A program made the position numbers and the translations under genes. The notes under the pieces were generated by a model, which ran no database searches, was not told the origin of the DNA, and saw nothing but the letters and a program-made list of their open reading frames with translations. Positions 9,827-31,950 of a stretch of 32,000 nucleotides of DNA are shown here, in pieces. Source of the stretch: Trichodesmium erythraeum IMS101 (GTDB lineage: Bacteria > Cyanobacteriota > Cyanobacteriia > Cyanobacteriales > Microcoleaceae); contig NC_008312.1 of the NCBI RefSeq assembly GCF_000014265.1, forward strand, positions 870,001-902,000. Direction: 5' to 3'. Numbering within the stretch: position 1 is the stretch's first letter; each line of letters starts with the position of its first letter.

Positions 9827-10081
9827 ATAATTTTCAAGTTTATGATCAACCGCGAAACTTCAATAACTTATGAGATCATACATAGCCATCAGTAACGCCT
9901 AATTTTTTTTTAGATGTTGGTAGAAAAAACAATAGGGTTTCCCCTGATCAAACCTGAAAGATATTAATTAATTTAATATCATATTCCCTTCTACCCTCTG
10001 CCTTCCTTCTATAAGTAAATAAATACTTAACCAGATTAATAATTAAGTATTTTGTCATACGCAAACTTTGGAGATAATTTT

Positions 10082-11080
10082 ATGAAAGCTTTTGAAGTTA
10101 GAGAATTTGGCAACTTAGTTTGTACTGAAAGACCACAACCAGAACCAAAATTTGGAGAAGTTTTAGTGAAAGTTAAAGCTGTCTCCCTTAACTATCGAGA
10201 TATTTTAATGGTTAAAGGTGCTTACAACCCCCATCTACCTCTACCTGTTATTCCATGCTCTGATGGAGTTGGAGAGGTTGTGTCAGTGGGGGAAGGTGTC
10301 ACTAAAGTGAAACCTGGAGATAGAGTTGCTAGCATTTTTATGCAGAAATGGTTATCTGGTAACTTGACTAGAGAAGCAGCCAGGTCAGCTTTGGGTGGTG
10401 AAATTGACGGAATGTTAGCAGAATATGTAATTTTGTCGGAAGATGGAGTGGTAAATATTCCATCTTACTTATCTGATATAGAAGCAGCTACTTTACCTTG
10501 TGCGGCAGTAACAGCTTGGCACGCTTTAATAGAAGCTGGTTTAAAACCAGGGGAAACAGTATTAGTAATGGGAACAGGTGGAGTTTCCTTATTTGCCTTA
10601 CAGTTTGCAGTGATGGCAGGAGCACGAGTCATCGCAACTTCCAGTAGTGATGAAAAATTAGCGCGGGTGAAACAGTTGGGTGCATCTGATATGATTAATT
10701 ATAAATCTGTACCTAAATGGGAAAAACAAGTGTTAGCCTTGACTGAGGGCACTGGAGTTGACTATGTTGTGGAAGTTGGTGGAGCCAAGACTTTGAGTCA
10801 GTCTTTAAAAGCAGTAAAGATAGGAGGTCAAATAAGTTTAATAGGTATATTGGCAGGAGCGCAAGCAGAATTTAATATTTTACCTGCACTCATGAAAGAA
10901 GTTCGGATACATGGTATTTTTGTGGGTTCCCGTCAAATGTTTGAAGCGATGAATAGGGCGATAGATCTTTCTCAGTTGCATCCGGTCTGTGATCGCATTT
11001 TTCCATTTGAGTCAGCTCCAGAAGCACTAAGTTATATGGAAATAGGTTCCCATTTTGGTAAAATTACAATTCAATTTTAG
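10082..11080 (+). CDS. Medium-chain dehydrogenase/reductase, NADPH:quinone-oxidoreductase-like
   Basis: GroES-like N-domain ('GEVLVKVKAVSLNYRD', 'PGDRV') followed by a Rossmann motif 'GTGGVSLFALQFA'. The GHE zinc ligand pattern is absent ('CSDGVGEV'). ATG 10082 is preceded by GGAGA and is preferred over the tracked TTG-frame start at 10052. Confidence 0.85.
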   Translation: MKAFEVREFGNLVCTERPQPEPKFGEVLVKVKAVSLNYRDILMVKGAYNPHLPLPVIPCSDGVGEVVSVGEGVTKVKPGDRVASIFMQKWLSGNLTREAARSALGGEIDGMLAEYVILSEDGVVNIPSYLSDIEAATLPCAAVTAWHALIEAGLKPGETVLVMGTGGVSLFALQFAVMAGARVIATSSSDEKLARVKQLGASDMINYKSVPKWEKQVLALTEGTGVDYVVEVGGAKTLSQSLKAVKIGGQISLIGILAGAQAEFNILPALMKEVRIHGIFVGSRQMFEAMNRAIDLSQLHPVCDRIFPFESAPEALSYMEIGSHFGKITIQF

Positions 11081-11100: not shown

Positions 11101-12081
11101 ATGAAAGCATTAGTTTTAGAAAAACCGGGAATTCCTGATAGTTTATATATTACAGAAATACCTTTACCACAACCGGCAGCAGGGGAAATACGGGTACAAG
11201 TTCATGCTGTCGGACTAAACCCTGTTGACTACAAACTTGCTGCTGGGGGTTTTTCAACATGGAGTTATCCATTTATTTTGGGGTTAGATGTGGCAGGGGT
11301 TGTGGATGCTGTCGGTACTGATGTGACTGAATGGCAGGTTGGAGAGCAGGTTTATTATCATGGAAATTTATCTAAACCAGGAGCTTATGCAGAATATACT
11401 AATGCTAACGCTTTAGCAGTTGCTCCACTTCCAGAGGGTATTTCTTTTACAAAAGCTGCTGCTATTCCTTGTGCTGGTTTCACTGCTTACCATGCTTTGC
11501 ATCACCGTTTGCATATTCAATCAAAACAAACTATTTTAATTCATGGTGGTGCTGGTGGAGTTGGTAGTTTTGCCCTCCAGTTAGCATCTTTGGCAGGTTT
11601 GGAGGTGATTACAACTTGTTCTCAGAGTAATTTTGATTATGTGCAAAAGTTGGGAGCAAAGCATTTAATTGATTATAAAAATCAGGATGTAGTTATAAGA
11701 GTCAAGGAAATTACTAACGACCGTGGTGTTGATGCTATTTTAGATACGGTTGGTTCGGAAACTGCAACAACAGGTTTGAAAATGTTGGCATTTAATGGTG
11801 GAATTGCTTGTATTGCTGCTTTGCCTGATTTTAGTAATTTCAAATCTTTTAGTCTTGCTGCTTCTATCCATCAAATTGCTTTAGGAGGTGCTTATTTATC
11901 TGGGGATAAAAAAGCGATTCAAGATTTAGGAAAAATGGGGAGAGAAATGGGAGAATTAGTAAGAGAAAAGAAAGTTAGTCCGATGTTAACTGAAGTAATT
12001 AGTTTGGAGGAAATACCGAAAGCATTAAATCGTTTGAAAGGTCGTCATGTAAGAGGAAAAATAGTTGCTGAAATTCGATAA
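11101..12081 (+). CDS. Second medium-chain dehydrogenase/reductase, quinone-oxidoreductase-like paralogue
   Basis: 'GEIRVQVHAVGLNPVDYK', a Rossmann motif 'GGAGGVGSFALQLA', and the C-terminal 'GRHVRGKIV' typical of zeta-crystallin-like MDRs. A perfect AGGAGG sits at 11090-11095, 5 nt before the ATG, and the gene starts 20 nt after the previous stop, so an operon is likely. Confidence 0.85.
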   Translation: MKALVLEKPGIPDSLYITEIPLPQPAAGEIRVQVHAVGLNPVDYKLAAGGFSTWSYPFILGLDVAGVVDAVGTDVTEWQVGEQVYYHGNLSKPGAYAEYTNANALAVAPLPEGISFTKAAAIPCAGFTAYHALHHRLHIQSKQTILIHGGAGGVGSFALQLASLAGLEVITTCSQSNFDYVQKLGAKHLIDYKNQDVVIRVKEITNDRGVDAILDTVGSETATTGLKMLAFNGGIACIAALPDFSNFKSFSLAASIHQIALGGAYLSGDKKAIQDLGKMGREMGELVREKKVSPMLTEVISLEEIPKALNRLKGRHVRGKIVAEIR

Positions 12082-16705: not shown

Positions 16706-16747
16706 GAATTGTCCCATTTTGAATTTGCCAGGCGATCGCTTTCACTA

Positions 16748-16836
16748 GATCAGGACTTACCTACACAGATCAAAATATACACTATCTATAGTGGGTTGAC
16801 AGCGGCTACTAGATAATTGGTTCTGTGTAAGTCCTG
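16748..16836. repeat. Inverted pair of a short dispersed repeat (CAGGACTTAC..ACACAG / CTGTGTAAGTCCTG)
   Basis: 16751-16768 'caggacttacctacacag' is the reverse complement of 16823-16836 'ctgtgtaagtcctg' except for a 4-nt insertion. A third copy, 'gtgtaagtcctgatca', lies at 3848-3863. Confidence 0.6.
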
Positions 16837-17568
16837 TATGAATATTATTTAAATGCTTATGATCAAAAATTGGCACTTCCAAGTTGGGCTTCGTTTTCAT
16901 GTACAACCTACAATATTATAATGTGGTTGTTCCTGGGAACTTTTCCCCCATGACTTCCCACAGGCCTTGACTGTGTATGGTGGTTTACCAAAAATGGCAG
17001 GAGTCTTTGACTCTAGCAAGGAATTTACCATAGCCGATGGGCTAATGTCTGCCAACAAGAGGGACGAAACCCAGAACCCACAGGGGGGATAGTTGATAGC
17101 CAATCAGTAAAAACAACGGAGAAAGGAGGGGCAGAGGGGAGCTTTCATGGAAGCCAAAGGTCAAAACGCGGAAATGCTACATCCTAGTGTAAACCTTGAG
17201 ACTGGTATTAGTGGTGCTGGTTCATGTTGCCAATATATCAGATGTCACAGCTGGGAGGATATTGCTAGCAGAATTTAGTCTGTCAGTTCCAACTCTAAAA
17301 AAGGTTTGAGCTGAACGAGGTTATAGAGGCCAGGGGTTGTAGCAAGCCGCGGATGGATGGGAGCTTCATCAGGGGGTGGTTGAAGGTTATCAAAAAAGTT
17401 TTGGGTTTGAACTTTGAGGTTGGGTGGTGGAGAGAACTTTAGGTATGCTCGGACGCCAAAGACGACTTAGTAAAGATTAGGAGGGTTTAACGGAAGTAAG
17501 TGAATCTGTTGTTTATATAGCCATGATTTTACTGATGTTAAATTGTCTTGTCCCTTAAGGTTTTATTT
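16800..17568 (+). mobile_element. Decayed IS5-family (DDE_Tnp_1) transposase relic with multiple stops and frameshifts
   Basis: Frame-hopping translation gives 'GLRFHVQPTIL*CGCSWELFPHDFPQALTVYGGLPKMAGVFD...NPQGG', then 'GIVDSQSVKTTEKGG', then 'GKPKVKTRKCYILV*TLRLVLVVLVHVANISD', and finally 'ERTLGMLGRQRRLSKD*EGLTEVSESVVYIAMILLMLNCL'. These match the IS5-family pattern as I recall it (GCxWRxLPxDFPPWxTVYxYF / IIDSQSVKT / ERTFAWL..RRLSKDYE). No intact ORF remains and the element ends are not defined. Confidence 0.75.
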
Positions 17569-17760
17569 ACAGATATCCTCTTACAATAATTCTTTAACGA
17601 ATGAATAAGTTGGTGTTGAAGCTAGGAAAAAAAAAGGAGATTTTGAAACCCAACCCTTAAAGTTTATTGAGGATATGTGCTATAAAACTAATTGAAGTTA
17701 ATTTTATGGTTGACTTTAAAGGAGATCTATTAAATAGATGCTAAATTTGTCGTTTCAAGA

Positions 17761-21275: not shown

Positions 21276-21342
21276 AATACCTATAAATTAAATAAAAAGT
21301 CAATATAATTTTCAACATCTACCACAATAACAAAAGCCTGTG

Positions 21343-24300
21343 ATGAAACCTAATAGCTCAAAACTCTGCACCATAAAAGCTCTGAGTTTAATACTAGGCA
21401 CATTAGCCACCACTCCCGCCAACTCCCAGCCCATAACCCCGGCTAAGGATGGCACCAATACTACTGTTACTCCACAGGGCCAACAATTTAATATTAAAGG
21501 TGGGACTCGCAGTGGTGCTAATGTATTTCACAGCTTTGATAAGTTTAATGTGCACTCTGGTCAAACTGCCAACTTTGTCACGACCCCGGATACTCGCAAT
21601 GTTCTCGGACGAGTTAAGGGAGGCGCTTCTTATATTAATGGTCTTATTCAGGTTCTAGGTAGCAGCTCTAACCTCTTCTTAATGAACCCCGCAGGCATAA
21701 TGTTTGGCCCAAACGCCAGCCTCAATGTACCTGCGTCATTCAGTGTTACTACTGCTACTGGTATTGGTTTTGACCAGAATAATTTCTGGTTCAAGGCTAT
21801 GGGGACTAATGACTATTCAAATTTGCTCGGAAGCCCTAGTGGTTATAGGTTTGATGTTTCTAAACCTGGTTCTATTGTTAATGAAGGAAGTTTAACTTTA
21901 AATTCTGGAGAAAATTTAACTTTATTAGGGGGAACTGTTGTTAATACAGGGGAACTCTCTAGCCCTGGGGGTAATATTACTGTCACTGCTGTCGAAGGTG
22001 GTAGTACCCTGAAAATATCTCAACCAGGACATTTGTTAAGTTTAGAGGTACCCCTAGAGGATGGAGAAAATATTTCTAATATTGATCCTCTATCTTTACC
22101 AGAGTTATTAGCTGGTGGAGGAGATGTCGTTGAGGCTACATCTGTTATTGTTAAAGAGAATGGTGATGTGGTTTTGACCGGTTCAAATACTATGGTGGCT
22201 GAGACTCCGGGAACGGCAACTATTTCGGGAAAGATAGATGTATCAACTACTGCTAGTTCTCTCCAAAATGAGGGGGGTGCTAGTTTTGGAAGCCAAGTTA
22301 ATGTGTGGGGCGATCGTGTGGCTCTTATAGATACAAATATCAAGGCTGATGGCAAAAATGGGGGTGGAACTGTATTAATAGGAGGAGATTTTCAAGGGTT
22401 GGGTATAGTTCCTAATTCTCAGCATACTTTTGTTAATAATAATTCATTTATTTCTGCGGATGCTATCACAAATGGTGATGGAGGTCAAGTTAGAATTTGG
22501 TCGGATGGTATTACTAATTTTGCGGGAAATATTAGTGCTAAAGGCGGCACATCTTCGGGAAATGGAGGGTTGGTTAAAATTGGGGGAAAAGAACAATTAA
22601 TCTTTGATGGAAAGGTGGATGTTACTGCGGCTTTAGGGACTGAAGGTACGATTTTATTGGACCCAGAAAGTGTGACGGTGGGAGAGGATAATTCGGAAGG
22701 TGAAAAGGAAATTGTCGAGGATAATTCGGAGGTTTCTGAGACAGAAAATACTGATAATTATGATGGGGAAATTATTGAGGATAATTCCGAGGTTTCTGAG
22801 ACAGAAAATACTGATAATTCCACAACAAAAAATACTGATAATTTAGAAGATAAAGAAACAGAAAATCCTCTTGATCCTTTTGCTGCTGATGAGAATTCTG
22901 ATGTGACTATTTCGGCGGATAATTTAGGGGAATTATCGGGGAATGTGATTATTGATGCTGATAATGATATTACCATAAATGAAAGGATAGAAACTGATTC
23001 TTCTGTGGAGTTAAAGGCGGGTCGAAGTATTAATATAAATGCGGATATTGATACTAAGAGTGGAAATGGAAATATTGATTTATTGGGTAATAATGATGAG
23101 ATGAATTTGGCTAACCGTTCTGATGGGAAAGCTTCGATAAATCAATTGGATGGAACAATTTTAAATGCTGGAAGTGGTGGAATTAATATTAAGTTGGGAA
23201 GTTTAGGAGAGGTAGGTGATATAAATCTGGGAAATTTAAGGACGACAGGGAAGGTTTTGGTTGATGCAAATGGGGGAAATATTGTTAGAGTTTCTGAGAA
23301 TTCTTTGATAAATGCGGGGAGTGTTTTGTTTAGAACTTCTGGGAATGGAGGTATAGGTTTTGTTGGTGAACCTTTGCGGTTGGATGTGCAGAATTTGGAG
23401 GCGGTTTCTGGTAGTGGTGGGGTGTTTTTTGATGTGGGAAATGTGAATATTGGTGGTGTGAGTGAGGATGTAGATGGTATTGCTACTTTTGGAGGAGATG
23501 TTGATATTAAGAGCGCGGGAAATGTGACTTTAAATGAAACTATTTCTAGCAATGAGGTTGTAGAGAATAATTCTGAGGCGACATCTACAGAAAATACGGA
23601 GGTTGTTGATGGAGGTGGTGGGATAAATATTGAAGCGGCGGGAGATATTGTGGCTACGGGTAGTGGTATTAAAGGTGGTGGGGAAGCTGTTTCTTTGTCT
23701 GGGACTAATATTAGGATAAATGATGAATTTGATGAGACTTCTGGGGATGCGGATGTTAAGTTGTCGGCGACAAATGATATTGTTGTTGAGGATATAGAGG
23801 ATGATGCATTGGAGTTTATGCCTGGGAGGGGGAAGATAGAATTTCGTGCGGATCTGGATGGGGATGGGTTTGGTCTTGTGGAGATGTTGGATAATAAGCC
23901 GGATGTTGGGAGTAACCCTGATGTTTTTGATAATGGGGCGGATACTATTAAGACTAATGGGCGAGGTTTGACTATTGCTGGTGCTGGTCTGGTTTTGGGG
24001 AATGTTGATACTTCTTGGTTGCCTGTTTATTCTGGTGGGGAGTTGTTGAAGGCGATCGATGTGGATGAGGGGGGGCCGATACCTCCGGGAGTGGAGGATA
24101 AAAGTGGATTAATTTCAGAGGAAGATTTTGATTGGTCTTCTTCGGGGGTAGATGATGAAGGTCGTTATTATGGTGGCAAGATAACCATTGACGGCCAATC
24201 TTATAATGTTTATTATGATGGTTATGATGATGAGAAGAAAGTATCGAAATATACTATTAACGGCCAATCTTATTATCAAGCTGGAGTTGAAGGTAAACTT

Positions 24301-27300
24301 TATTATGTGCCTGCTACGAAGACTTGGGAAGATACTGCAACATTTACTTTTACTGTAGATGGTGACTTGGGAACTGTAAAAAATATAGATGTTCGCTTTT
24401 CTGCGGCACATACTTACAATAAGCAGTTAGAGGTTAGTCTGGAATCACCCCAAAAAACGAAAGTACAATTGTTTACAGGTGTTGGTAGTTATGGAGGAGA
24501 GAACTTTCAGGATACTGTGTTGGATGATAATGCTTCTAGAAGTATTGATAATGGCCTTGCTCCGTTTGATGGTACATATCGTCCCCAAGGAAGTTTAGCA
24601 GATTTTAATGGAGAAAATCCTAATGGAACTTGGACTTTGACGGTAAAAGATACGAATATCGAATATGGTAACGGCACTTTATACAGAGCTGGTGAGACTG
24701 CTCACTGGGGAACTACTGCCATAGGTACACAACTGTTGCTGCGTAATCCTCTTGTTCAGATTGCTGCTGGAGGAAATGGTGGAGCGATCAACCTAGAAGC
24801 AACTCATGGTGATATTAGTGTGGGAAATATTCGTAGTTTGAGCGAAACTGCTAATGGGGGAAGAATTGACCTGAATGCTAATAAGGATATTATTTCTGGC
24901 CTGATTAATTCTAGTTCAGAGCGAGGCAATGGAGGTGATGTCAACCTTAATGCGATCTCTGGTGAGATTAGTACTTTTTCATTGGATACTTCATCATTTG
25001 ATGGAGATGGAGGTAGTGTGGAGATGAAGGCGTTAGGGGATATTACTACTAAAGCAGAGATGATGACTGATTCTGGTGAGTTTTTTGTTGATGATTATGG
25101 ATATGTAGAAAATACCAGCGGTGGTGGTGGCAATGCTGGTAATATCAAGATAGAAAGTACAGAAGGTTCAATTGATACTAAAGCAGGTTCAATTTCTGCT
25201 GGTTCAGTTTCAGGAAATGGAGGAGCCATTGATTTGGATGCTGGTGGCGATATCAAGACAGAAAACCTCTATCCCGGGTCCTATTCCAGGTCAGGCAACT
25301 CAGGAAATGGAGGAGCCATTGATTTGGATGCTGGTGGCGATATCAAGACAGAAAACCTCTATCCCGGGTCCTATTCCAGGTCAGGCAACTCAGGAAATGG
25401 AGGAGCCATTGATTTGGATGCTGGTGGCGATATCAAGACAGAAAACCTCTATCCCGGGTCCTATTCCAGGTCAGGCAACTCAGGAAATGGAGGAGCCATT
25501 GATTTGGATGCTGGTGGCGATATCACTACACAATACCTCTATTCCAGCTCCTATTCCGAATCAGGCAACTCAGGAAATGGAGGAGCCATTGATTTGGATG
25601 CTGGTGGCGATATCAAGACAGAAAACCTCTATCCCGGGTCCGATTCCAGCTCAGGCAACTCAGGAAATGGAGGAGCCATTGATTTGGATGCTGGTGGCGA
25701 TATCACTACACAATACCTCTATTCCGGGTCCGATTCCTGGGAAGACAACTCATATTCCGGGTCCTATTCCGGGTCTGGCAAGTCAGGAAATGGAGGAGCC
25801 ATTGATTTGGATGCTGGTGGCGATATCACTACACAAGACCTCGATTCCAGGTCCTTTTCCTATGGAGGCGACTCAGGAAATGGAGGAGACATAACACTGA
25901 ATGCAAAACAAATTAACCCTCCAGAAGACGGAAATGCAGAAAAACTAACAATCTATACATTTTCTGTAGGTAGCACTGACTCTAAAAAAGCTGGAGACGT
26001 TAACATTACCACCAACAATCTCAGTAACACAGATATATTAACACTATCCTCCCACTCTGAATCAGGAAAAGTAACAATAAAAAGTAAGACACAAGAACCA
26101 CTTCAAATCAAAGACTCATCCATTATCACTAGTGAACAAGTAACAGTAGAAATCTTCGGGGAACAAATACAAATAGAAACAGGAAATACCCAATCAGGCG
26201 ACGTCTTCATCAACAGTGACGGCGACCTCAACCTAAACAACGTCACCATAGAAAGCGACACCAAAAGTAACCAAGCCGCCGGAGACGTCAACATCTACAG
26301 CCGCGGCAACATCACACTCGAAAACACCGACATCATCAGCACCACCAACTCCCAAGGCAACGCCGGCCAAATCACCTTAGAAACCAACGAAAACATAGAA
26401 CTCACCAACAACAGCAAAATCCTAGCCAACACAGAAGGAACCGGAAACGCAGGTCAAATAAACATAGAAGCCAACAACCTCATCCTAGACCAAAACACCA
26501 AACTCATCACAGAAACCGCAAGGGCCGGCAACCCCGGAGACATAAAAATCCAAGCCAACACCATAGACATAGGAGAAGGCGCTAAAGCCAGCACCACAGT
26601 CTTAACAGGTTCAACCAGCACCGGAGAAGGAGGCAACATCACCATCAACACAAACAAACTCAACGTCACAGGAAAACTCGGAATATTTGCCGAAACCGAA
26701 GCCAGCAAAAACGCCGGTATCCTTCGCATCTCACCCTACAAAAACAACCCCGACCTAGACATCACCTTCAAAAACGACGGCTTCATCTCCGCCTCCACCT
26801 CATCCACAGGCAACGGAGGCAACATATTCATCAAAGCCCCAGAAAACATCAACATAACAGGCCAAGGGTTCATTGCCACCAAAACATCAGGCACAGGTAA
26901 CGCCGGAATTATCGACATCAAAACCAACAACCTGAGAATATCCAATGGAGTCAAAATCAATGCTTCCACAGAAGACCAAGGCAACGCCGGCGCAATCAAA
27001 ATCAACACCACAGACTTCACCCTAAAAAAAGGAACAAGTCTGACAACAGAAACCAACAGCGCCGGACTAGCCGGAAACATAGAAATAAACACCAAAAAAC
27101 TCACAATAGGACAAAACGCCCAAATAAGTGCCACAGCACTAGAAGGAGCCAGCAACAAAGAAGCAGGCGGCAACATCACCATCAACGCCAATAACCTAGA
27201 CATATCAGGAAAACTAGGAATATTCGCGGAAACCGCAGGAGAAAGCCCCGCAGGCACCCTCACCCTGAACCCATATAAAAACAACCCCAACCTAAATATA

Positions 27301-30300
27301 GAATTCAAACAACAAGGCTTCATTTCTGCTCGCACCACCTCCAGTGGCAACGGAGGCAACATAAATATTCAAGCACCAGAAAAAATCAACATTACAGGAG
27401 ACGGAAAAATATCAGCGGAAACCACAGGGAGTGGAAATGCAGGCACCATCAATATCCAAACAGAAAACCTCAACCTATCAGAGCAAGTAGCCATAAGTGC
27501 CGAAACCAACAGTCAAGGTCAAGCCGGAAACATTGAAATTAACTCCCAAACAGTTACCATAGGAAAAGGCACAGAAATAAGTGCAACAGCCGGAAAAAAA
27601 GCAACAAGCACCGGAGATGGAGGCAACATCACCATCAACACCAACGACCTAGAAATCTCAGGAAAACTAGGAATATTCGCGGAAACCAAAGGAGCATCAA
27701 ACGCCGGAACCTTAACCATCACCCCTTATAAAACCAACCCAGACCTCAATAGCAAAACCGACCCAAACATCAATATTACCTTCACCGACCAAGGCTTCAT
27801 TTCTGCTAGCACCAAATCTCTAGGAAAGGGAGGCGACATCAATATATTAGCACCAGAAAACATAAATATTACAGGAGATGGTCGGATAACAGTTGAAGCC
27901 AAAGGTAGTGGAGACGCAGGCATTATTAACATTGAAACAAAAAACCTGACAATAGCCGAAAACACAAAAATATCAGCATCCACATCCGACAGCGGAAACG
28001 GAGGCGAAATCAAAATTAATTCTAGTGAAACATTCCAACAACAAGGCCGAATATTAACAGAAACCACAGGAACAGGAGATGGAGGCATTATCAACATTGA
28101 AGCAGGAGAAATAACTGCGCCTAACAGCAAGATATCAGCTAAAAGTACCGGGGCGGGCAACGCAGGTACAATAGATATTACTGCCCAAGGAGATATTACC
28201 ACAGGAGTTGTTACCTCCGCCGCCAAAAATAAAAGAGAAACTGCTGACGGAGGTAGCATCAGTATTACCAGTCAACAAGGAAAAATTAACGCCACCCGAG
28301 CAATTCAATCATTTTCAGAAGGAGGCAACGCCGGAAATGTTACCCTCAAAGCCCAAACAGACATAACTGCCAATACCATAAGTTCTCACGGAAAGCAAGA
28401 GGGTGGTCAAATAACCATCAGATCAGAAACCGGAAATATTGACACCAGTAGTGGTAAATTCTTAGCCAACTATTCAGGAGGCGGTGACGCGGGAGACATT
28501 ACAATGGAAGCACCCCAAGGAAATATTACCACAAATAATATCTATTCCTACGCCGACGGAGACGGAGGTCAAATAAACATTAAAGCCGGAAACAATATTA
28601 ATATAGAAGCAAACAGTAATATTATTTCTGCATCAGAGCCACCAAGTGAGGGAAACAGTGACAAACAAGGAAAAGGAGGAGATATTACTCTAGAAGCAGG
28701 CAACAATATTAATACTACAGCAGCTAATATATATTCTGGTGCCAACGAGGGCGACACAGGACAAATTGATATTACTGCAGATAACGCAATAGAAACAGGT
28801 AAAATAGACTTAGCATCAGGTTTTGTCAGACAAGAAACAAAAGTAAACCAAAACCTGGTCCTCATCCCTAAACCAGGAGAACCAGCCACCAAAGGAAAAG
28901 CTGGAGACATCAGACTCCGCAGCAGAAACAGTACAATAGACACCACCGGTGGCACAATAAATTCTCGTTCCCCAGACGGCACCGGAGATATTATTATCAA
29001 TGCCAAAGGAAATATTAGCACAGGGAAATTAGAAGCCAGCGCCCTTAACCCAGACAACCCTACCACAGGTGGAGACGTTAATATTACCAGCGAGCAAGGA
29101 GAAATTAATGCAACTCAAAACATAGAAACCTTCTCAGAAAAAGGTACAGCAGGAGATGTAAATATTACTGCAGCGGGTCATATCAATACAAACACCATTC
29201 GTTCAGATGGAATGGAACAGGGAGGAGATATTAATATTAGGAGCGATAGTGAAAGTAGCATAGATGCAGCAGGAGCATTACAAACATATTCAGATGCAGG
29301 AACAGCAGGAAACGTCAACCTCACATCCCCAGGGAATGTTAATATTAGCGGCATTCGTTCAGAAGGAATGGAGCAGGGAGGTGATATTACACTGAAGAGT
29401 CAAGGAGGAGAAATTAACTCTACAGGCGATATAGACTCCTATTCAAAACAAGGAAAAGGAGGATACGTCAAAGTAGATGCCCCAGAAAGAGTAAATTTAG
29501 CAAATGTATCATCCTACGGCATGACAGAAAGTGGTGACTTAATTACTCAGAGCCAACAAGCAGAAGTTAATACAGGAAATGTCACAACACAAGCTTCAGA
29601 GGGAAAGAGTGGACGTATAGTCATCAACGGAACAGAAGTAGGTACGGGAAATTTAAGTTCTATCGCAGGAACAAGCGCCGGGGAAATTAATGTAGAAGCA
29701 ACAGATGGTTCTATTGCCACCTATGATATAGAAATGACATCAGGTGGTACACTAGGAGCTTTAACACTGAGAGCACCAGAAAATATTAACACAGGAGACA
29801 TTCGTCAAAAAGCAGGAGAGGGAGATGCGAATGCAAATATATTTTCAGGAGGAAACCAAACCACAGGAAATATTAGTCAAGAAGCAGGCAATAATACTAA
29901 CCTAAATCAAAATGCAGGAGAGAATATAAATGCAGGGAATATCGAACAAAATGCTGGTAATAATACTAACCTAAATCAAACTGCAGGAGAGAATATAAAT
30001 GCAGGGAATATCGAACAAAATGCTGGTAATAATACTAACCTAAATCAAACTGCAGGAGAGAATATAAATGTAGGGAATATCGAACAAAATGCGGGTAATA
30101 ATACTAACCTAAATCAAACTGCAGGAGAGAATATAAATACAGGGGATATCGAACAAAATGCGGGTAATAATACTAACCTAAATCAAACTGCAGGAGAGAA
30201 TATAAATACAGGGGATATCGAACAAAATGCGGGTAATAATACTAACCTAAATCAAACTGCAGGAGAGAATATAAATACAGGGGATATCGAACAAAATGCT

Positions 30301-31950
30301 AGTAATAATACTAGTATTTATCAAATTGCAGAAGGAGAGATTAATACACCAGTCATTAATCAAACTTTCGGTAATGAGACTACGCTCAATCAAATATCAG
30401 TAAGAGATGTTAATACACCAGTAATTTCTAATAACAATATACCTAATAATCAAGGACTTAATCAAGAAAATTTCTCTAATAATAACAATAACAATATTGA
30501 GAATAATTCCACTACAAATTCCTCAAACAATAAAAACATTTCATCAACCCTTACCCAGTCTCAAAGGTCTGAATTAATTTCAACTTCTACCCCCAGCAAC
30601 AATAACCAAACAACTAATACAAATACAGCCCAAGAACAAACAGAATCATCTATTAATAGTACAACGGATACCCAAAAAATCTTAAACATAATTGATACCG
30701 TCAATACCAATTCCTTGACAGTTGCGACTGGTTCAGACCAAGTAATAACAATGTTAGAACAAAACCTTACTAACGAATATTCTAATTACTTTGGAACAGA
30801 TTTTAAGGAACAATTTATTAACCAAAAAACACCCCGAGAAATCTTAACCGATATGGCTGCTAAAACAGGAAAAGAATCTGCAGTTGTTTATATTAATGCT
30901 TATCCAGAGGAATTACAAATAATTTTATATACCAAAGATGGTCAACCTATTCTTAAAACTATCCCGGAAGCTAACCGTAAAAAATTAGAGAAAGTAGTTA
31001 TAAATTTCCTCAAATTAACGACAAGTCCTGCCTATCGTGATTTTAATAGTTATCTATCACCAGCAAAACAATTATATGATTGGTTCATTGCACCTATATC
31101 AGCAGAATTAGAAGCAGCAAATATCGATACCTTATTGTTCAGTATGGGTGAAGGTTTACGTATTTTACCAGTGGCAGCATTACATGATGGAAAGCAATTT
31201 TTAATTGAGAAATATAGCCTAAGTTTAATTCCGAGTATCAGCTTAATGGATACAAATTATCGCCCACTTCAAGGTACTCAAGTATTAGCTATGGGAGCTA
31301 GTAAATTTATCAATGAAAAACCTTTACCAGCAGTACCTGTGGAGATAGAAACAATTTCTGAACAGTTATGGGAAGGTAGTAAATTTTTAAACGAAGAATT
31401 TACCAAGAATAATTTGTTAACTCAAAGAAAAAATTATCCCTATCCTATTATTCACTTAGCTACCCATGCAACATTTAATAGAGGAAAACCTAGTAATTCT
31501 TACATTCAGCTATGGGGTAATGAACAAATAAAGTTAGACCAAGTGCGGGAGTTGGGTTGGAGTACCCCATCGGTTGACTTGTTGGTATTGTCTGCTTGTC
31601 GCACTGCTGTAGGAAATAGAGAAGCGGAATTAGGGTTTGCAGGGTTAGCAGTAGCAGCGGGAGTGAAGTCAGCCTTAACGAGCCTTTGGACTGTAAGTGA
31701 TGAAGGGACATTGGCATTAATGACAGAGTTTTATACTCATTTGAATGATGCTAAGATCAAGTCAGAGGCATTAAGACAGGCGCAGTTAGCAATGCTGCAA
31801 GGGCAGGTGCTTATTACAGGTGGGGAGTTGAGGGGAAGCAGCACTCGTGGTGGGGTGGAGCTACCTTCGGCGTTCGCAAATGTAAACAATCAAAATTTAT
31901 CTCATCCTTATTACTGGGCAGGGTTTACTATAGTTGGTAGTCCTTGGTAA
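21343..31950 (+). CDS. Giant TpsA-like exoprotein: signal peptide, TPS/haemagglutination domain, beta-helix shaft, P-domain, repeat arrays and a C-terminal CHAT caspase-like protease domain
   Basis: One uninterrupted 10.6-kb frame (GTG 21340 / ATG 21343). Signal peptide ends at 'TTPANS|Q'. TPS motifs are 'NVFHSFDKFNV' and 'LFLMNPAGIMFGPNASLNV'. G/N/I/T/D-rich beta-helix coils run for about 2,800 aa. The P-domain block is 'DVRFSAAHTYNKQLEVSLESP...NGTWTLTVKD'. The CHAT block is 'IIHLATHATF...LLVLSACRTAVG...HPYYWAGFTIVGSPW'. Confidence 0.9.
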   Translation: MKPNSSKLCTIKALSLILGTLATTPANSQPITPAKDGTNTTVTPQGQQFNIKGGTRSGANVFHSFDKFNVHSGQTANFVTTPDTRNVLGRVKGGASYINGLIQVLGSSSNLFLMNPAGIMFGPNASLNVPASFSVTTATGIGFDQNNFWFKAMGTNDYSNLLGSPSGYRFDVSKPGSIVNEGSLTLNSGENLTLLGGTVVNTGELSSPGGNITVTAVEGGSTLKISQPGHLLSLEVPLEDGENISNIDPLSLPELLAGGGDVVEATSVIVKENGDVVLTGSNTMVAETPGTATISGKIDVSTTASSLQNEGGASFGSQVNVWGDRVALIDTNIKADGKNGGGTVLIGGDFQGLGIVPNSQHTFVNNNSFISADAITNGDGGQVRIWSDGITNFAGNISAKGGTSSGNGGLVKIGGKEQLIFDGKVDVTAALGTEGTILLDPESVTVGEDNSEGEKEIVEDNSEVSETENTDNYDGEIIEDNSEVSETENTDNSTTKNTDNLEDKETENPLDPFAADENSDVTISADNLGELSGNVIIDADNDITINERIETDSSVELKAGRSININADIDTKSGNGNIDLLGNNDEMNLANRSDGKASINQLDGTILNAGSGGINIKLGSLGEVGDINLGNLRTTGKVLVDANGGNIVRVSENSLINAGSVLFRTSGNGGIGFVGEPLRLDVQNLEAVSGSGGVFFDVGNVNIGGVSEDVDGIATFGGDVDIKSAGNVTLNETISSNEVVENNSEATSTENTEVVDGGGGINIEAAGDIVATGSGIKGGGEAVSLSGTNIRINDEFDETSGDADVKLSATNDIVVEDIEDDALEFMPGRGKIEFRADLDGDGFGLVEMLDNKPDVGSNPDVFDNGADTIKTNGRGLTIAGAGLVLGNVDTSWLPVYSGGELLKAIDVDEGGPIPPGVEDKSGLISEEDFDWSSSGVDDEGRYYGGKITIDGQSYNVYYDGYDDEKKVSKYTINGQSYYQAGVEGKLYYVPATKTWEDTATFTFTVDGDLGTVKNIDVRFSAAHTYNKQLEVSLESPQKTKVQLFTGVGSYGGENFQDTVLDDNASRSIDNGLAPFDGTYRPQGSLADFNGENPNGTWTLTVKDTNIEYGNGTLYRAGETAHWGTTAIGTQLLLRNPLVQIAAGGNGGAINLEATHGDISVGNIRSLSETANGGRIDLNANKDIISGLINSSSERGNGGDVNLNAISGEISTFSLDTSSFDGDGGSVEMKALGDITTKAEMMTDSGEFFVDDYGYVENTSGGGGNAGNIKIESTEGSIDTKAGSISAGSVSGNGGAIDLDAGGDIKTENLYPGSYSRSGNSGNGGAIDLDAGGDIKTENLYPGSYSRSGNSGNGGAIDLDAGGDIKTENLYPGSYSRSGNSGNGGAIDLDAGGDITTQYLYSSSYSESGNSGNGGAIDLDAGGDIKTENLYPGSDSSSGNSGNGGAIDLDAGGDITTQYLYSGSDSWEDNSYSGSYSGSGKSGNGGAIDLDAGGDITTQDLDSRSFSYGGDSGNGGDITLNAKQINPPEDGNAEKLTIYTFSVGSTDSKKAGDVNITTNNLSNTDILTLSSHSESGKVTIKSKTQEPLQIKDSSIITSEQVTVEIFGEQIQIETGNTQSGDVFINSDGDLNLNNVTIESDTKSNQAAGDVNIYSRGNITLENTDIISTTNSQGNAGQITLETNENIELTNNSKILANTEGTGNAGQINIEANNLILDQNTKLITETARAGNPGDIKIQANTIDIGEGAKASTTVLTGSTSTGEGGNITINTNKLNVTGKLGIFAETEASKNAGILRISPYKNNPDLDITFKNDGFISASTSSTGNGGNIFIKAPENINITGQGFIATKTSGTGNAGIIDIKTNNLRISNGVKINASTEDQGNAGAIKINTTDFTLKKGTSLTTETNSAGLAGNIEINTKKLTIGQNAQISATALEGASNKEAGGNITINANNLDISGKLGIFAETAGESPAGTLTLNPYKNNPNLNIEFKQQGFISARTTSSGNGGNINIQAPEKINITGDGKISAETTGSGNAGTINIQTENLNLSEQVAISAETNSQGQAGNIEINSQTVTIGKGTEISATAGKKATSTGDGGNITINTNDLEISGKLGIFAETKGASNAGTLTITPYKTNPDLNSKTDPNINITFTDQGFISASTKSLGKGGDINILAPENINITGDGRITVEAKGSGDAGIINIETKNLTIAENTKISASTSDSGNGGEIKINSSETFQQQGRILTETTGTGDGGIINIEAGEITAPNSKISAKSTGAGNAGTIDITAQGDITTGVVTSAAKNKRETADGGSISITSQQGKINATRAIQSFSEGGNAGNVTLKAQTDITANTISSHGKQEGGQITIRSETGNIDTSSGKFLANYSGGGDAGDITMEAPQGNITTNNIYSYADGDGGQINIKAGNNINIEANSNIISASEPPSEGNSDKQGKGGDITLEAGNNINTTAANIYSGANEGDTGQIDITADNAIETGKIDLASGFVRQETKVNQNLVLIPKPGEPATKGKAGDIRLRSRNSTIDTTGGTINSRSPDGTGDIIINAKGNISTGKLEASALNPDNPTTGGDVNITSEQGEINATQNIETFSEKGTAGDVNITAAGHINTNTIRSDGMEQGGDINIRSDSESSIDAAGALQTYSDAGTAGNVNLTSPGNVNISGIRSEGMEQGGDITLKSQGGEINSTGDIDSYSKQGKGGYVKVDAPERVNLANVSSYGMTESGDLITQSQQAEVNTGNVTTQASEGKSGRIVINGTEVGTGNLSSIAGTSAGEINVEATDGSIATYDIEMTSGGTLGALTLRAPENINTGDIRQKAGEGDANANIFSGGNQTTGNISQEAGNNTNLNQNAGENINAGNIEQNAGNNTNLNQTAGENINAGNIEQNAGNNTNLNQTAGENINVGNIEQNAGNNTNLNQTAGENINTGDIEQNAGNNTNLNQTAGENINTGDIEQNAGNNTNLNQTAGENINTGDIEQNASNNTSIYQIAEGEINTPVINQTFGNETTLNQISVRDVNTPVISNNNIPNNQGLNQENFSNNNNNNIENNSTTNSSNNKNISSTLTQSQRSELISTSTPSNNNQTTNTNTAQEQTESSINSTTDTQKILNIIDTVNTNSLTVATGSDQVITMLEQNLTNEYSNYFGTDFKEQFINQKTPREILTDMAAKTGKESAVVYINAYPEELQIILYTKDGQPILKTIPEANRKKLEKVVINFLKLTTSPAYRDFNSYLSPAKQLYDWFIAPISAELEAANIDTLLFSMGEGLRILPVAALHDGKQFLIEKYSLSLIPSISLMDTNYRPLQGTQVLAMGASKFINEKPLPAVPVEIETISEQLWEGSKFLNEEFTKNNLLTQRKNYPYPIIHLATHATFNRGKPSNSYIQLWGNEQIKLDQVRELGWSTPSVDLLVLSACRTAVGNREAELGFAGLAVAAGVKSALTSLWTVSDEGTLALMTEFYTHLNDAKIKSEALRQAQLAMLQGQVLITGGELRGSSTRGGVELPSAFANVNNQNLSHPYYWAGFTIVGSPW
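21427..22210 (+). other. TPS (two-partner secretion / filamentous haemagglutinin N-terminal) domain
   Basis: The conserved FHSF..FNV block (aa 61-71) and an NPNGI-type motif, here NPAGI (aa 116-120, nt 21685-21699), in the spacing usual for TpsA proteins. The C-terminal boundary is approximate. Confidence 0.8.
22684..22850 (+). repeat. 60-nt acidic tandem repeat, about 2.5 copies (E-I-[VI]-EDNSEVSETENTDN)
   Basis: 43-nt cores at 22717-22759 and 22777-22819 differ by 1 nt, flanked by partial copies. A related acidic motif 'ENNSEATSTENTE' recurs at about 23560-23600. Confidence 0.85.
24334..24745 (+). other. Proprotein-convertase-type P-domain with no adjacent subtilisin domain
   Basis: 'TFTFTVDGDLGTVKNIDVRFSAAHTYNKQLEVSLESPQKTKVQLF...FQDTVLDDNASRSIDNGLAPFDGTYRPQGSLADFNGENPNGTWTLTVKDTNIEYGNG' follows the P_proprotein pattern (hallmarks 'D..A...i....aPf.G.yrP...L..F.G....G.W.L.v.D'). 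No D/H/S subtilase motifs occur upstream. Confidence 0.7.
25211..25903 (+). repeat. 90-nt (30-aa) in-frame tandem array, about 8 units (NSGNGGAIDLDAGGDIKTENLYPGSYSRSG)
   Basis: Units start at 25211, 25301, 25391, 25481, 25571, 25661, 25784 and 25874. The first three (25211-25480, 270 nt) are identical at every base. The sixth unit carries a 33-nt insertion and the last is partial. Confidence 0.95.
26443..28200 (+). repeat. Three full copies and one partial copy of a 450-540-nt super-repeat, each of about 6-7 beta-helix coils
   Basis: Unit starts at 26443 (GNAGQINIEANN), 26896 (GNAGIIDIKTNN), 27433 (GNAGTINIQTEN) and 27910 (GDAGIINIETKN). The shared internal landmark 'GGNITIN.N.L..(S/T)GKLGIFAET...PYK.NP.L.I.F...GFISA.T.S.G.GG.I.I.APE.INITG.G' appears in all three full units. 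Confidence 0.8.
29884..30366 (+). repeat. 69-nt (23-aa) in-frame tandem array, 6 good units plus 1 degenerate unit (AGNNTNLNQTAGENIN.G.IEQN)
   Basis: Unit starts at 29884, 29953, 30022, 30091, 30160, 30229 and 30298 (degenerate). Units 4-6 (30091-30297, 207 nt) are identical, and units 2 and 3 differ by 1 nt. Confidence 0.95.
30750..31947 (+). other. CHAT domain (clan CD caspase-like cysteine protease fold)
   Basis: Predicted His in 'PIIHLATHATF' (H3376, nt 31465-31467) and Cys in 'DLLVLSACRTAVG' (C3420, nt 31597-31599). The CHAT-typical tail 'LSHPYYWAGFTIVGSPW' lies at the exact C-terminus. The N-terminal boundary is approximate. Confidence 0.85.

Follow-up and report, generated by a model that had tools for sequence, protein, structure and literature searches.

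Two opposite codon styles within one giant reading frame of Trichodesmium erythraeum IMS101

How does one uninterrupted reading frame come to be written in two codon styles that are mirror images of each other? The question is raised by 32,000 nucleotides from the forward strand of Trichodesmium erythraeum IMS101 (RefSeq assembly GCF_000014265.1, contig NC_008312.1, positions 870,001 to 902,000; this whole stretch is hereafter the window, and its own numbering is used), which holds a giant open reading frame (ORF). A first-pass annotation, made from the letters alone, had described in this ORF a C-starved block followed by an A+C-rich, T-poor block, and had proposed either a foreign graft or selection on the message. 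Judged by the sequences of related genes, the switch from G/T- to A/C-ending codons belongs to the gene family as a trait, falls on a conserved junction between modules and was not brought in as a foreign insert. The features on which the argument rests are listed below, with K denoting the G/T-ending and M the A/C-ending block style, and A3, C3, G3 and T3 denoting base frequencies at third codon positions.

21340-31950, plus strand: giant ORF, uninterrupted, 3,536 amino acids (aa), likely ATG start at 21,343
22540-25200, plus strand: B1, K block, G/T-ending and C-starved; third positions A.21, C.05, G.23, T.51
25120-25962, plus strand: 90-nt (30-aa) tandem array, seven copies, of intermediate composition (C3.33, T3.31)
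25858-26200, plus strand: K-to-M change point; G3 about 0 from 25,930, T3 about 0 by 26,200
26100-27400, plus strand: B2, core M block, A/C-ending; third positions A.39, C.53, G.02, T.07
~26,512-26,933, 27,049-27,470 and 27,502-27,947, plus strand: three super-repeats, DNA identity 66-75%
27400-30300, plus strand: decaying M tail; A+C at third positions 0.73 (B2b) and 0.56 (B3), G3 at most 0.10
29766-30414, plus strand: 69-nt (23-aa) tandem array, at the end of the putative beta-helix body

Mirror-image blocks in one reading frame

Third-position usage was gauged against the 13 other ORFs of the window (n = 5,019 codons), in which A+C make up 0.449 of third positions overall and 0.45 ± 0.08 (range 0.27-0.60) in 100-codon windows. 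The earlier hand counts proved exact (nt 23,401-23,520, 6 C in 120 nt: A24 C6 G48 T42; nt 26,281-26,400, 42 C and 12 T in 120 nt: A47 C42 G19 T12), both segments lie in the one ORF, and the discontinuity appeared in sliding-window composition, in skew and in third-position profiles alike. In 500-nt windows, GC skew rises to +0.68 at 23.0-23.5 kb and falls to -0.36 at 26.0-26.5 kb, with AT skew leaping to about +0.5. The 100-codon windows of 22,540-25,240 show C3 of 0.00-0.12, T3 of 0.41-0.58 and G3 of up to 0.37, and those of 26,140-27,340 show C3 of 0.44-0.62, A3 of 0.34-0.46, G3 of 0.01-0.03 and T3 of 0.03-0.07. Relative to the baseline, the share of A+C at third positions is 0.26 in B1 (z = -11.4, chi-squared p = 8e-26), falling to 0.17 with a C3 of 0.01 in the B1 core (23,140-24,040), and 0.91 in B2 (z = +19.4, chi-squared p = 3e-142). 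Four-fold sites have a G/(G+C) of 1.00 in the B1 core, 0.05 in B2 and 0.47 in the background, and an A/(A+T) of 0.87 in B2 versus 0.41 in the background. The annotation had regarded the A+C-rich block alone as atypical. B2 is indeed so, and glmU and its neighbours do use the T-ending style, but B1 is not plain genomic style either: it carries its own excess of G- and T-ending codons, and the two blocks deviate in mirror-image directions.

The mosaic is mainly synonymous, as had been proposed. In B2, AAC supplies 90% of Asn and GAC 100% of Asp, AAA, GAA and CAA supply 100% of Lys, Glu and Gln, and among Thr codons ACG stands at 0% and ACT at 1%. In B1, GAT (95%), AAT (91%) and TTT (100%) prevail, and AAG (52% vs 16% in the background), GCG (36% vs 7%) and TTG (46% vs 17%) are in excess. 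Even the same G-N-G-G motif is spelled GGA AAT GGA GGT upstream and GGC AAC GGA GGC downstream. The annotation had both blocks encoding the same kind of coil. One coil type is detectable both in part of B1 and in part of the M region (E 3e-9), but the amino-acid composition of the two blocks is not identical: from B1 to B2, Val goes from 7.1% to 1.8%, Asp from 9.7 to 3.9, Ile from 7.2 to 12.9 and Thr from 7.7 to 12.5. These differences follow the nucleotide bias.

The switch itself is abrupt and sits on the 3' edge of the 90-nt array, the RNA of which is strongly foldable; a 30-codon window at 26,290 holds 25 C-ending and 5 A-ending codons and none ending in G or T. The annotation had placed the A+C-rich block at about 25,900-28,400, beginning at this edge and containing the three super-repeats. 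Its start and contents were borne out, but not its end, since the A+C-rich state fades gradually to about 30,000. Recent amplification of a single odd repeat unit is insufficient as an explanation, the super-repeats being only 66-75% identical. No inverted repeats were found within the giant gene, and the idea that B2 is an antisense reading of a B1-like module was rejected on this ground and for the dissimilarity of antisense translations to sense modules (best E ~0.5). Long-range pairing of B1 and B2 RNA was likewise rejected, the blocks having no complementarity.

Several smaller features accompany the blocks. The first ~150 codons (signal peptide and start of the TPS domain; 21340-21790) have a C3 of ~0.3 and the last ~150 (end of the CHAT domain; 31500-31950) a G3 of ~0.3, and both end styles are kept in nearly all Okeania and Dapis homologues (L001-L035 of the comparison below). 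At the start of the K block, 22707-22843, lies an acidic 60-nt (20-aa) tandem duplication (EIVEDNSEVSETENTDNYDG). An ORF of 240 aa in an alternative sense frame (25172-25894, plus strand) spans the 90-nt array; its match to DUF5368 is below threshold (24.1 bits vs a cut-off of 25), and the periodicity of the repeat most likely produced it as an artefact. At 30300-31000, the 69-nt array is separated from the CHAT domain by a low-complexity linker rich in Asn, Ser, Thr and Gln (NNNNNIENNSTTNSSNNKN...), in which G accounts for only 8-13% of bases and RNA folding is very weak (-6 to -9 kcal/mol per 150 nt).

A nucleotide-level bias across a gene family

We compared 78 related loci (L numbers), scoring the homologous module of each against that locus's own background. 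In L001-L044, from Okeania, Dapis and other Microcoleaceae, the module shows C3 of 0.25-0.44 vs 0.10-0.18 and G3 of 0.02-0.11 vs 0.13-0.18, with T3 lowered. About 40 giant homologues in Okeania, Dapis and Trichodesmium flip from G/T- to A/C-ending codons; the A/C-ending preference is thus general for the module, which contradicts the proposal that the block is foreign. The full K-to-M profile is repeated in L001, L002, L004, L005, L010, L013 and others, as well as in the Trichodesmium paralogues L079 and L080. Along the homologous ORFs it runs from a C3 of ~0.3 in the first 150 codons through a K-rich body to an abrupt flip, at which third-position A+C minus G+T reaches +0.6 to +0.8 and G3 0.00-0.03, followed by decay or a plateau and then by a G3-rich CHAT end. 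The change points of the closest relatives (L001, L002 and L004) map to window nt 25,888-25,936. By the same measure the ordinary ORFs of these loci score -0.05 ± 0.17 (maximum 0.47), the top-scoring long one being another copy of the giant family, and the blocks reach +0.8/+0.9 and -0.5/-0.8.

The homologous modules of Aphanothece (L050), Calothrix (L052), L069 and L072 are free of the bias, so the protein module as such does not require it. The A/C-rich block has its closest relatives in Trichodesmium, Hydrocoleum, Okeania and Dapis, and the flanking modules have relatives in the same genomes; block-specific relatives in another lineage, which a graft had been expected to show, did not appear, the best matches of the block belonging to this one clade. 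A replication origin or terminus was rejected as the cause, since so local an effect is found again in many paralogues that lie at different places in the genome.

Single genomes hold several paralogous giant genes, some in tandem on one contig and all with M blocks (e.g., L016, 1553-8695 and 11606-17386; L001, L004, L018 and L021, from one Okeania genome). Two loci carry a single in-frame stop each, namely L079 (TAA at 9974-9976; a Trichodesmium metagenome-assembled genome) and L020 (TAG at 10421-10423; Dapis), in both cases 100-300 nt upstream of the gene's own K-to-M flip, so that a TPS part and an M-block part remain in the same frame. These stops could be assembly errors, recent pseudogenisation or a recurrent feature of the junction.

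On what the pressure acts was judged from pooled blocks of the homologues. These were chosen by third position, which makes the third-position values circular (K blocks A.22, C.07, G.19, T.50; M blocks A.38, C.44, G.02, T.15; complement of the M block A.15, C.02, G.44, T.38), but not the results on Leu first positions, codon-family ratios and amino acids. CTN codons supply 85% of Leu in M blocks, as against 38% in the background and 31% in K blocks; TTA, an A-ending codon and the genome's commonest for Leu, drops from 47% to 7% (7-11% in M blocks) and is replaced by CTC and CTA. Every two-fold and four-fold family of the M blocks has C/(C+T) of 0.65-0.82 and A/(A+G) of 0.92-0.97. Val makes up 2.2% of M and 6.7% of K blocks, Ile 12.3 vs 9.3 and Thr 13.8 vs 8.2, and Asn/(Asn+Asp) is 0.71 vs 0.54; the shifts from K to M (Val to Ile, Asp to Asn, Ala to Thr, Phe or TTR-Leu to CTN-Leu) run along G<->A and T<->C transitions. 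Because Leu first positions shift, family ratios are uniform and amino-acid usage moves along transitions, the pressure acts on nucleotides and not on codon-tRNA matching. An Akashi-type test gave an odds ratio of 1.00 in the window, with A/C-ending shares of 0.95 at variable and 0.86 at conserved residues, and a weak association in the pooled set (odds ratio 1.2-1.4) that is alike in K and M blocks.

For highly expressed genes, 12 conserved proteins compared by tblastn with 1.3 Mb of related loci yielded only a 78-codon fragment of psbA, which prefers NAC, TTC and ATC and keeps CGT, GGT, GCT, GTA, TTA and ACT. This 3' fragment of the D1 gene (L024, 16817-17050; Okeania sp. SIO2C9; 92% identical to the query) lies ~1 kb downstream of a giant gene, has no upstream gene part and looks like a remnant. 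Used as a database query in turn, it matched only short, unlabelled D1 fragments.

The composition also outlasts its own codons. At residues identical to those of the window, L008 uses the same codon in 0.50 of cases vs 0.47 expected from usage, and L004 and L005 in 0.59 vs 0.51; synonymous sites are thus near saturation relative to the more distant relatives, yet the composition is undiminished. A frozen founder composition would have relaxed by now. Since dozens of paralogous and orthologous genes share the bias and it persists at such sites, some force actively maintains it in each lineage, and it was not imported.

Amino-acid identity between the window and each relative, mapped in 100-codon bins, jumps along the gene. 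With L002 it is 20-32% up to 24.9 kb and 61-81% from 25.2 kb; with L003 it is 62-85%, then 27-43% at 25.2-26.1 kb and then 74-81%; with L010 and L013 it is 70-84% up to 23.7 kb, ~30% after that and 59-71% at 27.0-27.6 kb. In L002, L003, L004 and L005, modules have been exchanged at breakpoints on or close to the junction. From these profiles the family is evidently a recombinational patchwork, its members exchanging modules of which each type keeps its own codon style, and the several paralogous giant genes per genome provide ample substrate for such exchange. The recombinational half of the graft proposal is therefore supported by the identity jumps, but not its foreign half, the exchange being within the family.

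Explanations for the two codon styles

The reading that we prefer, at a probability of roughly 40%, is one suggested by composition, namely single-strand deamination on opposite strands of the two blocks. Transition pressure as on single-stranded DNA, with C->T much stronger than A->G, would act on the sense strand of the upstream block but on the antisense strand of the downstream one, so that one strand of each block would end up C-starved and A-poor. Strands might be exposed as 3' tails when recombination starts repeatedly at the junction or the tandem array, or in R-loops arising from convergent sense and antisense transcription and reinforced by the growing GC skew; both candidate sources fit the observed polarity. 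Deamination (C->T and A->G) enriches single-stranded DNA in T and G (PMC4182315), and bidirectional 5'->3' resection at a break yields a C-depleted 5' side and a G-depleted 3' side (PMC6786661). The giant genes show the marks of deamination-type asymmetry, with one strand depleted of C most and of A next, most strongly at four-fold sites and uniformly across codon families. We favour this class of process because it explains both blocks, together with the uniformity across sites and codon families, by a single cause, and because the extreme values then need no strong per-site selection. We regard as unlikely the more specific proposal that the junction is a conserved site of recurrent single-strand exposure and the mirror blocks its accumulated footprint of deamination; such exposure could stem from programmed initiation of recombination, by which the paralogues of a polyploid cyanobacterium would swap cassettes, or from self-reinforcing R-loop domains under convergent transcription.

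A number of points weigh against deamination. A single break site should give symmetric sides, and those of the homologues are unequal (about +0.7 vs -0.2 to -0.5); L013 has a flat plateau of 5.4 kb that does not decay with distance and looks module-bound; and the K peak of the window lies ~2 kb from the junction instead of adjoining it. A bias as strong as that of mitochondrial DNA would need very frequent strand exposure at a chromosomal locus. Near-identical tandem copies showed no direction of change (20 from G/T to A/C vs 24 in reverse, mostly non-synonymous), and the pseudogenes sought as neutral controls had no more than one stop or frameshift each. The weaker mRNA folding described next is equally expected from selection on mRNA.

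M-block mRNA folds at -19 kcal/mol per 150 nt vs -27 in background genes. To control for the protein sequence, the same protein was recoded with background codon usage: native B2 gives -19.4 vs -23.7 ± 1.8 kcal/mol per 150 nt for the recoded version (z 2.4) despite its higher GC, folding is also weaker than recoded in B2b (z 3.7) and B3 (z 3.5), and B1 shows no effect (z -0.1). The earlier idea of a less structured A/C-rich message is in this respect upheld (z = 2.4-3.7). It had also traced the unusually long antisense ORFs to the T-poor sense strand, and this explanation fits the three ORFs concerned.

26736-27362, minus strand: antisense ORF, 208 aa, a by-product of T3 and Tyr depletion
27726-28259, minus strand: antisense ORF, 177 aa, same antisense frame, by-product
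28569-29066, minus strand: antisense ORF, 165 aa, same antisense frame, by-product

All three occupy the single frame whose stops need NNT|TAN, NNC|TAN or NNT|CAN in the sense strand, and they are long because T3 depletion frees that frame of stop codons. They have no Pfam match, and their translations are without similarity to the sense modules. Overlapping antisense genes were rejected for want of Pfam matches and since the open frame follows from composition. Scans for internal and antisense promoters and for terminators were at chance level (36 vs 30 ± 6 and 12 vs 9 ± 3). Under the deamination reading, the weakly folded A/C-rich mRNA, like the antisense ORFs, would be a consequence of the compositional bias.

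The main rival is selection on the mRNA, which we hold to be possible but doubtful. It would keep the downstream module poor in G and U, so that the message does not pair with itself and offers few U-rich nuclease sites or internal starts, thereby aiding the processivity of translation or the stability of an mRNA of >10 kb, with the upstream G/T excess as ordinary transcription-associated drift. In all ~45 loci the bias follows the sense strand, which agrees with this account, as do the module-bound plateau of L013, the depletion of TTA as a form of U avoidance, and the fact that B2, B2b and B3, but not B1, are less folded than their recoded versions. However, the low-GC 3' part of the gene lacks this codon style and is equally unstructured, Shine-Dalgarno-like GGAGG is tolerated (Gly-Gly is written GGA GGC), and homologous modules of other cyanobacteria do without the bias. 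A rise of C/(C+T) from 0.23 to 0.91 would moreover imply a scaled selection coefficient of ~3 or more at hundreds of synonymous sites, in a multi-copy, non-housekeeping gene family and in genomes with much non-coding DNA (PMC4143802), and selection on the mRNA would leave unexplained both the mirror-image upstream block and the stronger depletion of G than of T. Translational selection at the level of tRNA, in which A/C-ending codons are read by Watson-Crick pairing (fast or accurate) and G/T-ending ones by wobble, giving slow and then fast elongation, is improbable in our estimation. A/C-ending codons are exactly the cognates of GNN and UNN anticodons, NAC, ATC and TTC are preferred in the Okeania psbA fragment too, and the pooled loci have a weak A/C-ending excess at conserved residues (odds ratio 1.2-1.4), but that excess is similar in K and M blocks and the Akashi-type odds ratio in the window is 1.00. 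Nor would such selection replace A-ending TTA (47% to 7%) by CTC and CTA, make the ratios identical across all codon families, or nearly remove from the M block the codons GGT, GCT, CGT and ACT that the psbA fragment uses; and one cistron cannot have two expression levels. The null test and the TTA shift, which tRNA-level decoding does not predict, likewise speak against the faster decoding that the first-pass annotation had offered as an alternative.

Two historical explanations remain to be weighed against deamination. Modules might have been amplified from a short, odd seed and kept by concerted evolution, with no current pressure. The blocks do correspond to types of repeat and module, whole modules pass from gene to gene, and the tandem arrays prove that amplification occurs; yet the super-repeats are only 66-75% identical, codon identity with distant relatives is near random expectation while the composition is undiminished, and the bias is as strong at variable as at conserved residues (0.95 vs 0.86), so that we give this founder effect little chance. 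The horizontal graft of a foreign module with its donor's codon usage, for which the composition atypical of the host, the sharp boundary and the mosaic nature of the family could be cited, is very improbable: the nearest kin of the block fall within one clade with it (Trichodesmium, Hydrocoleum, Okeania, Dapis), its codon style is shared by many paralogues of a single genome and by different genera, and no mobility genes flank it. Furthermore, a G3 of ~0.01 with a C3 of ~0.55 is an extreme violation of strand parity and not a genome-wide codon style.

Gene context and comparison with known systems

By its domains, called with Pfam, the product of the giant ORF is a TPS...P-domain...CHAT exoprotein of the Trichodesmium/Okeania/Dapis clade.

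21448-22083, plus strand: TPS secretion domain (PF05860, E 3.6e-36, aa 37-248)
24379-24681, plus strand: proprotein-convertase P-domain (PF01483, E 9e-8, aa 1014-1114), embedded in B1
31060-31941, plus strand: C-terminal CHAT domain, caspase-like (PF12770, E 1.9e-69, aa 3241-3534)

The TPS region also matches EtpA (8cpk, E 1.7e-21) and HMW1 (2odl, E 2e-9), the N-terminal third (aa 13-780) aligns to the solved TpsA beta-helix 8vba, and the repeat pattern fits a right-handed beta-helix. The B2 protein has no sequence match in PDB; its best homologues are partial "filamentous hemagglutinins" from Trichodesmium, Hydrocoleum and Dapis. Cyanobacterial homologues of the giant protein number in the thousands. 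A cognate TpsB (POTRA/ShlB) domain was found in none of the window's ORFs of at least 150 aa; the window stops 50 nt past the gene, so that a partner further downstream would fall outside it.

The neighbouring genes are ordinary (glmU, quinone oxidoreductases, a Na+/solute symporter, TPR proteins, an MBOAT protein and a rhodanese), and no mobility genes are among those flanking the A/C-rich block. Two adjacent same-strand paralogues of the Zn-dependent dehydrogenase/quinone-oxidoreductase type lie at 10052-11080 and 11101-12081. A gap of ~1 kb at 16706-17760 has no ORF of at least 70 aa, no Rfam match and no tRNA, and its GC content is locally high (0.47) with a GC skew of +0.32. Trichodesmium has abundant expressed non-coding DNA (PMC4143802). 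The Trichodesmium primary-transcriptome paper makes no mention of giant genes of this family.

What the blocks mean depends on which reading holds. If they are mutational, the sequence records where, and on which strand, the DNA is habitually single-stranded; recombination or R-loop hot spots would become readable from sequence in uncultivable, polyploid and ecologically important cyanobacteria, and module shuffling in giant adhesin-like genes would gain a handle. Should exposure at the junction be the true cause, such a sequence-readable record has not been described before for a bacterial chromosomal gene. If the blocks are selective, they would be an unusually clean natural case of selection on mRNA base composition independent of tRNA choice. 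In either case they mislead compositional detectors of horizontal transfer, create spurious antisense ORFs and distort dS estimates and phylogenies. In the literature searched, we found no prior description of block-wise G/T- vs A/C-ending codon bias in such genes.

Among known systems, the TpsA exoproteins FhaB, EtpA and HMW1 share a TPS domain and, as judged by the repeat pattern, probable beta-helix repeats with the cyanobacterial TPS-CHAT giants, a likeness that covers the gene family only and not the compositional phenomenon. Genomic islands acquired by horizontal transfer resemble the blocks in their sharp compositional discontinuity; unlike them, the break in the giant gene is intragenic, common to family members, strand-asymmetric and accompanied by same-clade relatives. 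The GC and AT skew produced by replication and transcription in bacteria likewise violates strand parity, the leading or non-transcribed strand being G+T-rich, and the K block has this canonical sign, but the magnitude in the giant gene is about 10 times larger (GC skew +0.68 and -0.35 per 500 nt), and it is a local effect that changes sign inside one cistron and reappears in paralogues at many places in the genome.

The third positions of vertebrate light-strand genes, with A and C at ~0.4 each, T at ~0.15 and G at ~0.05, are close to those of the pooled M blocks (A.38, C.44, G.02, T.15). In animal mitochondrial DNA generally, one strand is T+G-rich and the other A+C-rich, most strongly at four-fold sites, and on the heavy strand C->T and A->G act while it is exposed as a single strand (PMC4182315). 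The giant-gene bias differs from this in spanning a few kb of one chromosomal gene, in flipping in frame and tracking modules, and in that no asymmetric replication mechanism is known for its locus. Strand-coordinated mutation clusters with a single switch at double-strand breaks have the same polarity over kilobase tracts (PMC6786661), and the breakpoints of module exchange in the giant family lie near the switch; such clusters are one-off events of yeast and cancer genomes, however, whereas the giant gene, with its unequal and plateau-like sides, would need a steady state from countless events. Strand asymmetry is usually a property of a replicon or organelle, and codon bias one of a gene or its expression level. 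In the giant gene an asymmetry of mitochondrial strength flips its sign in one frame, follows module boundaries and is conserved across genera. The phenomenon is strand compositional asymmetry, of a known kind, at an unusual scale and place.

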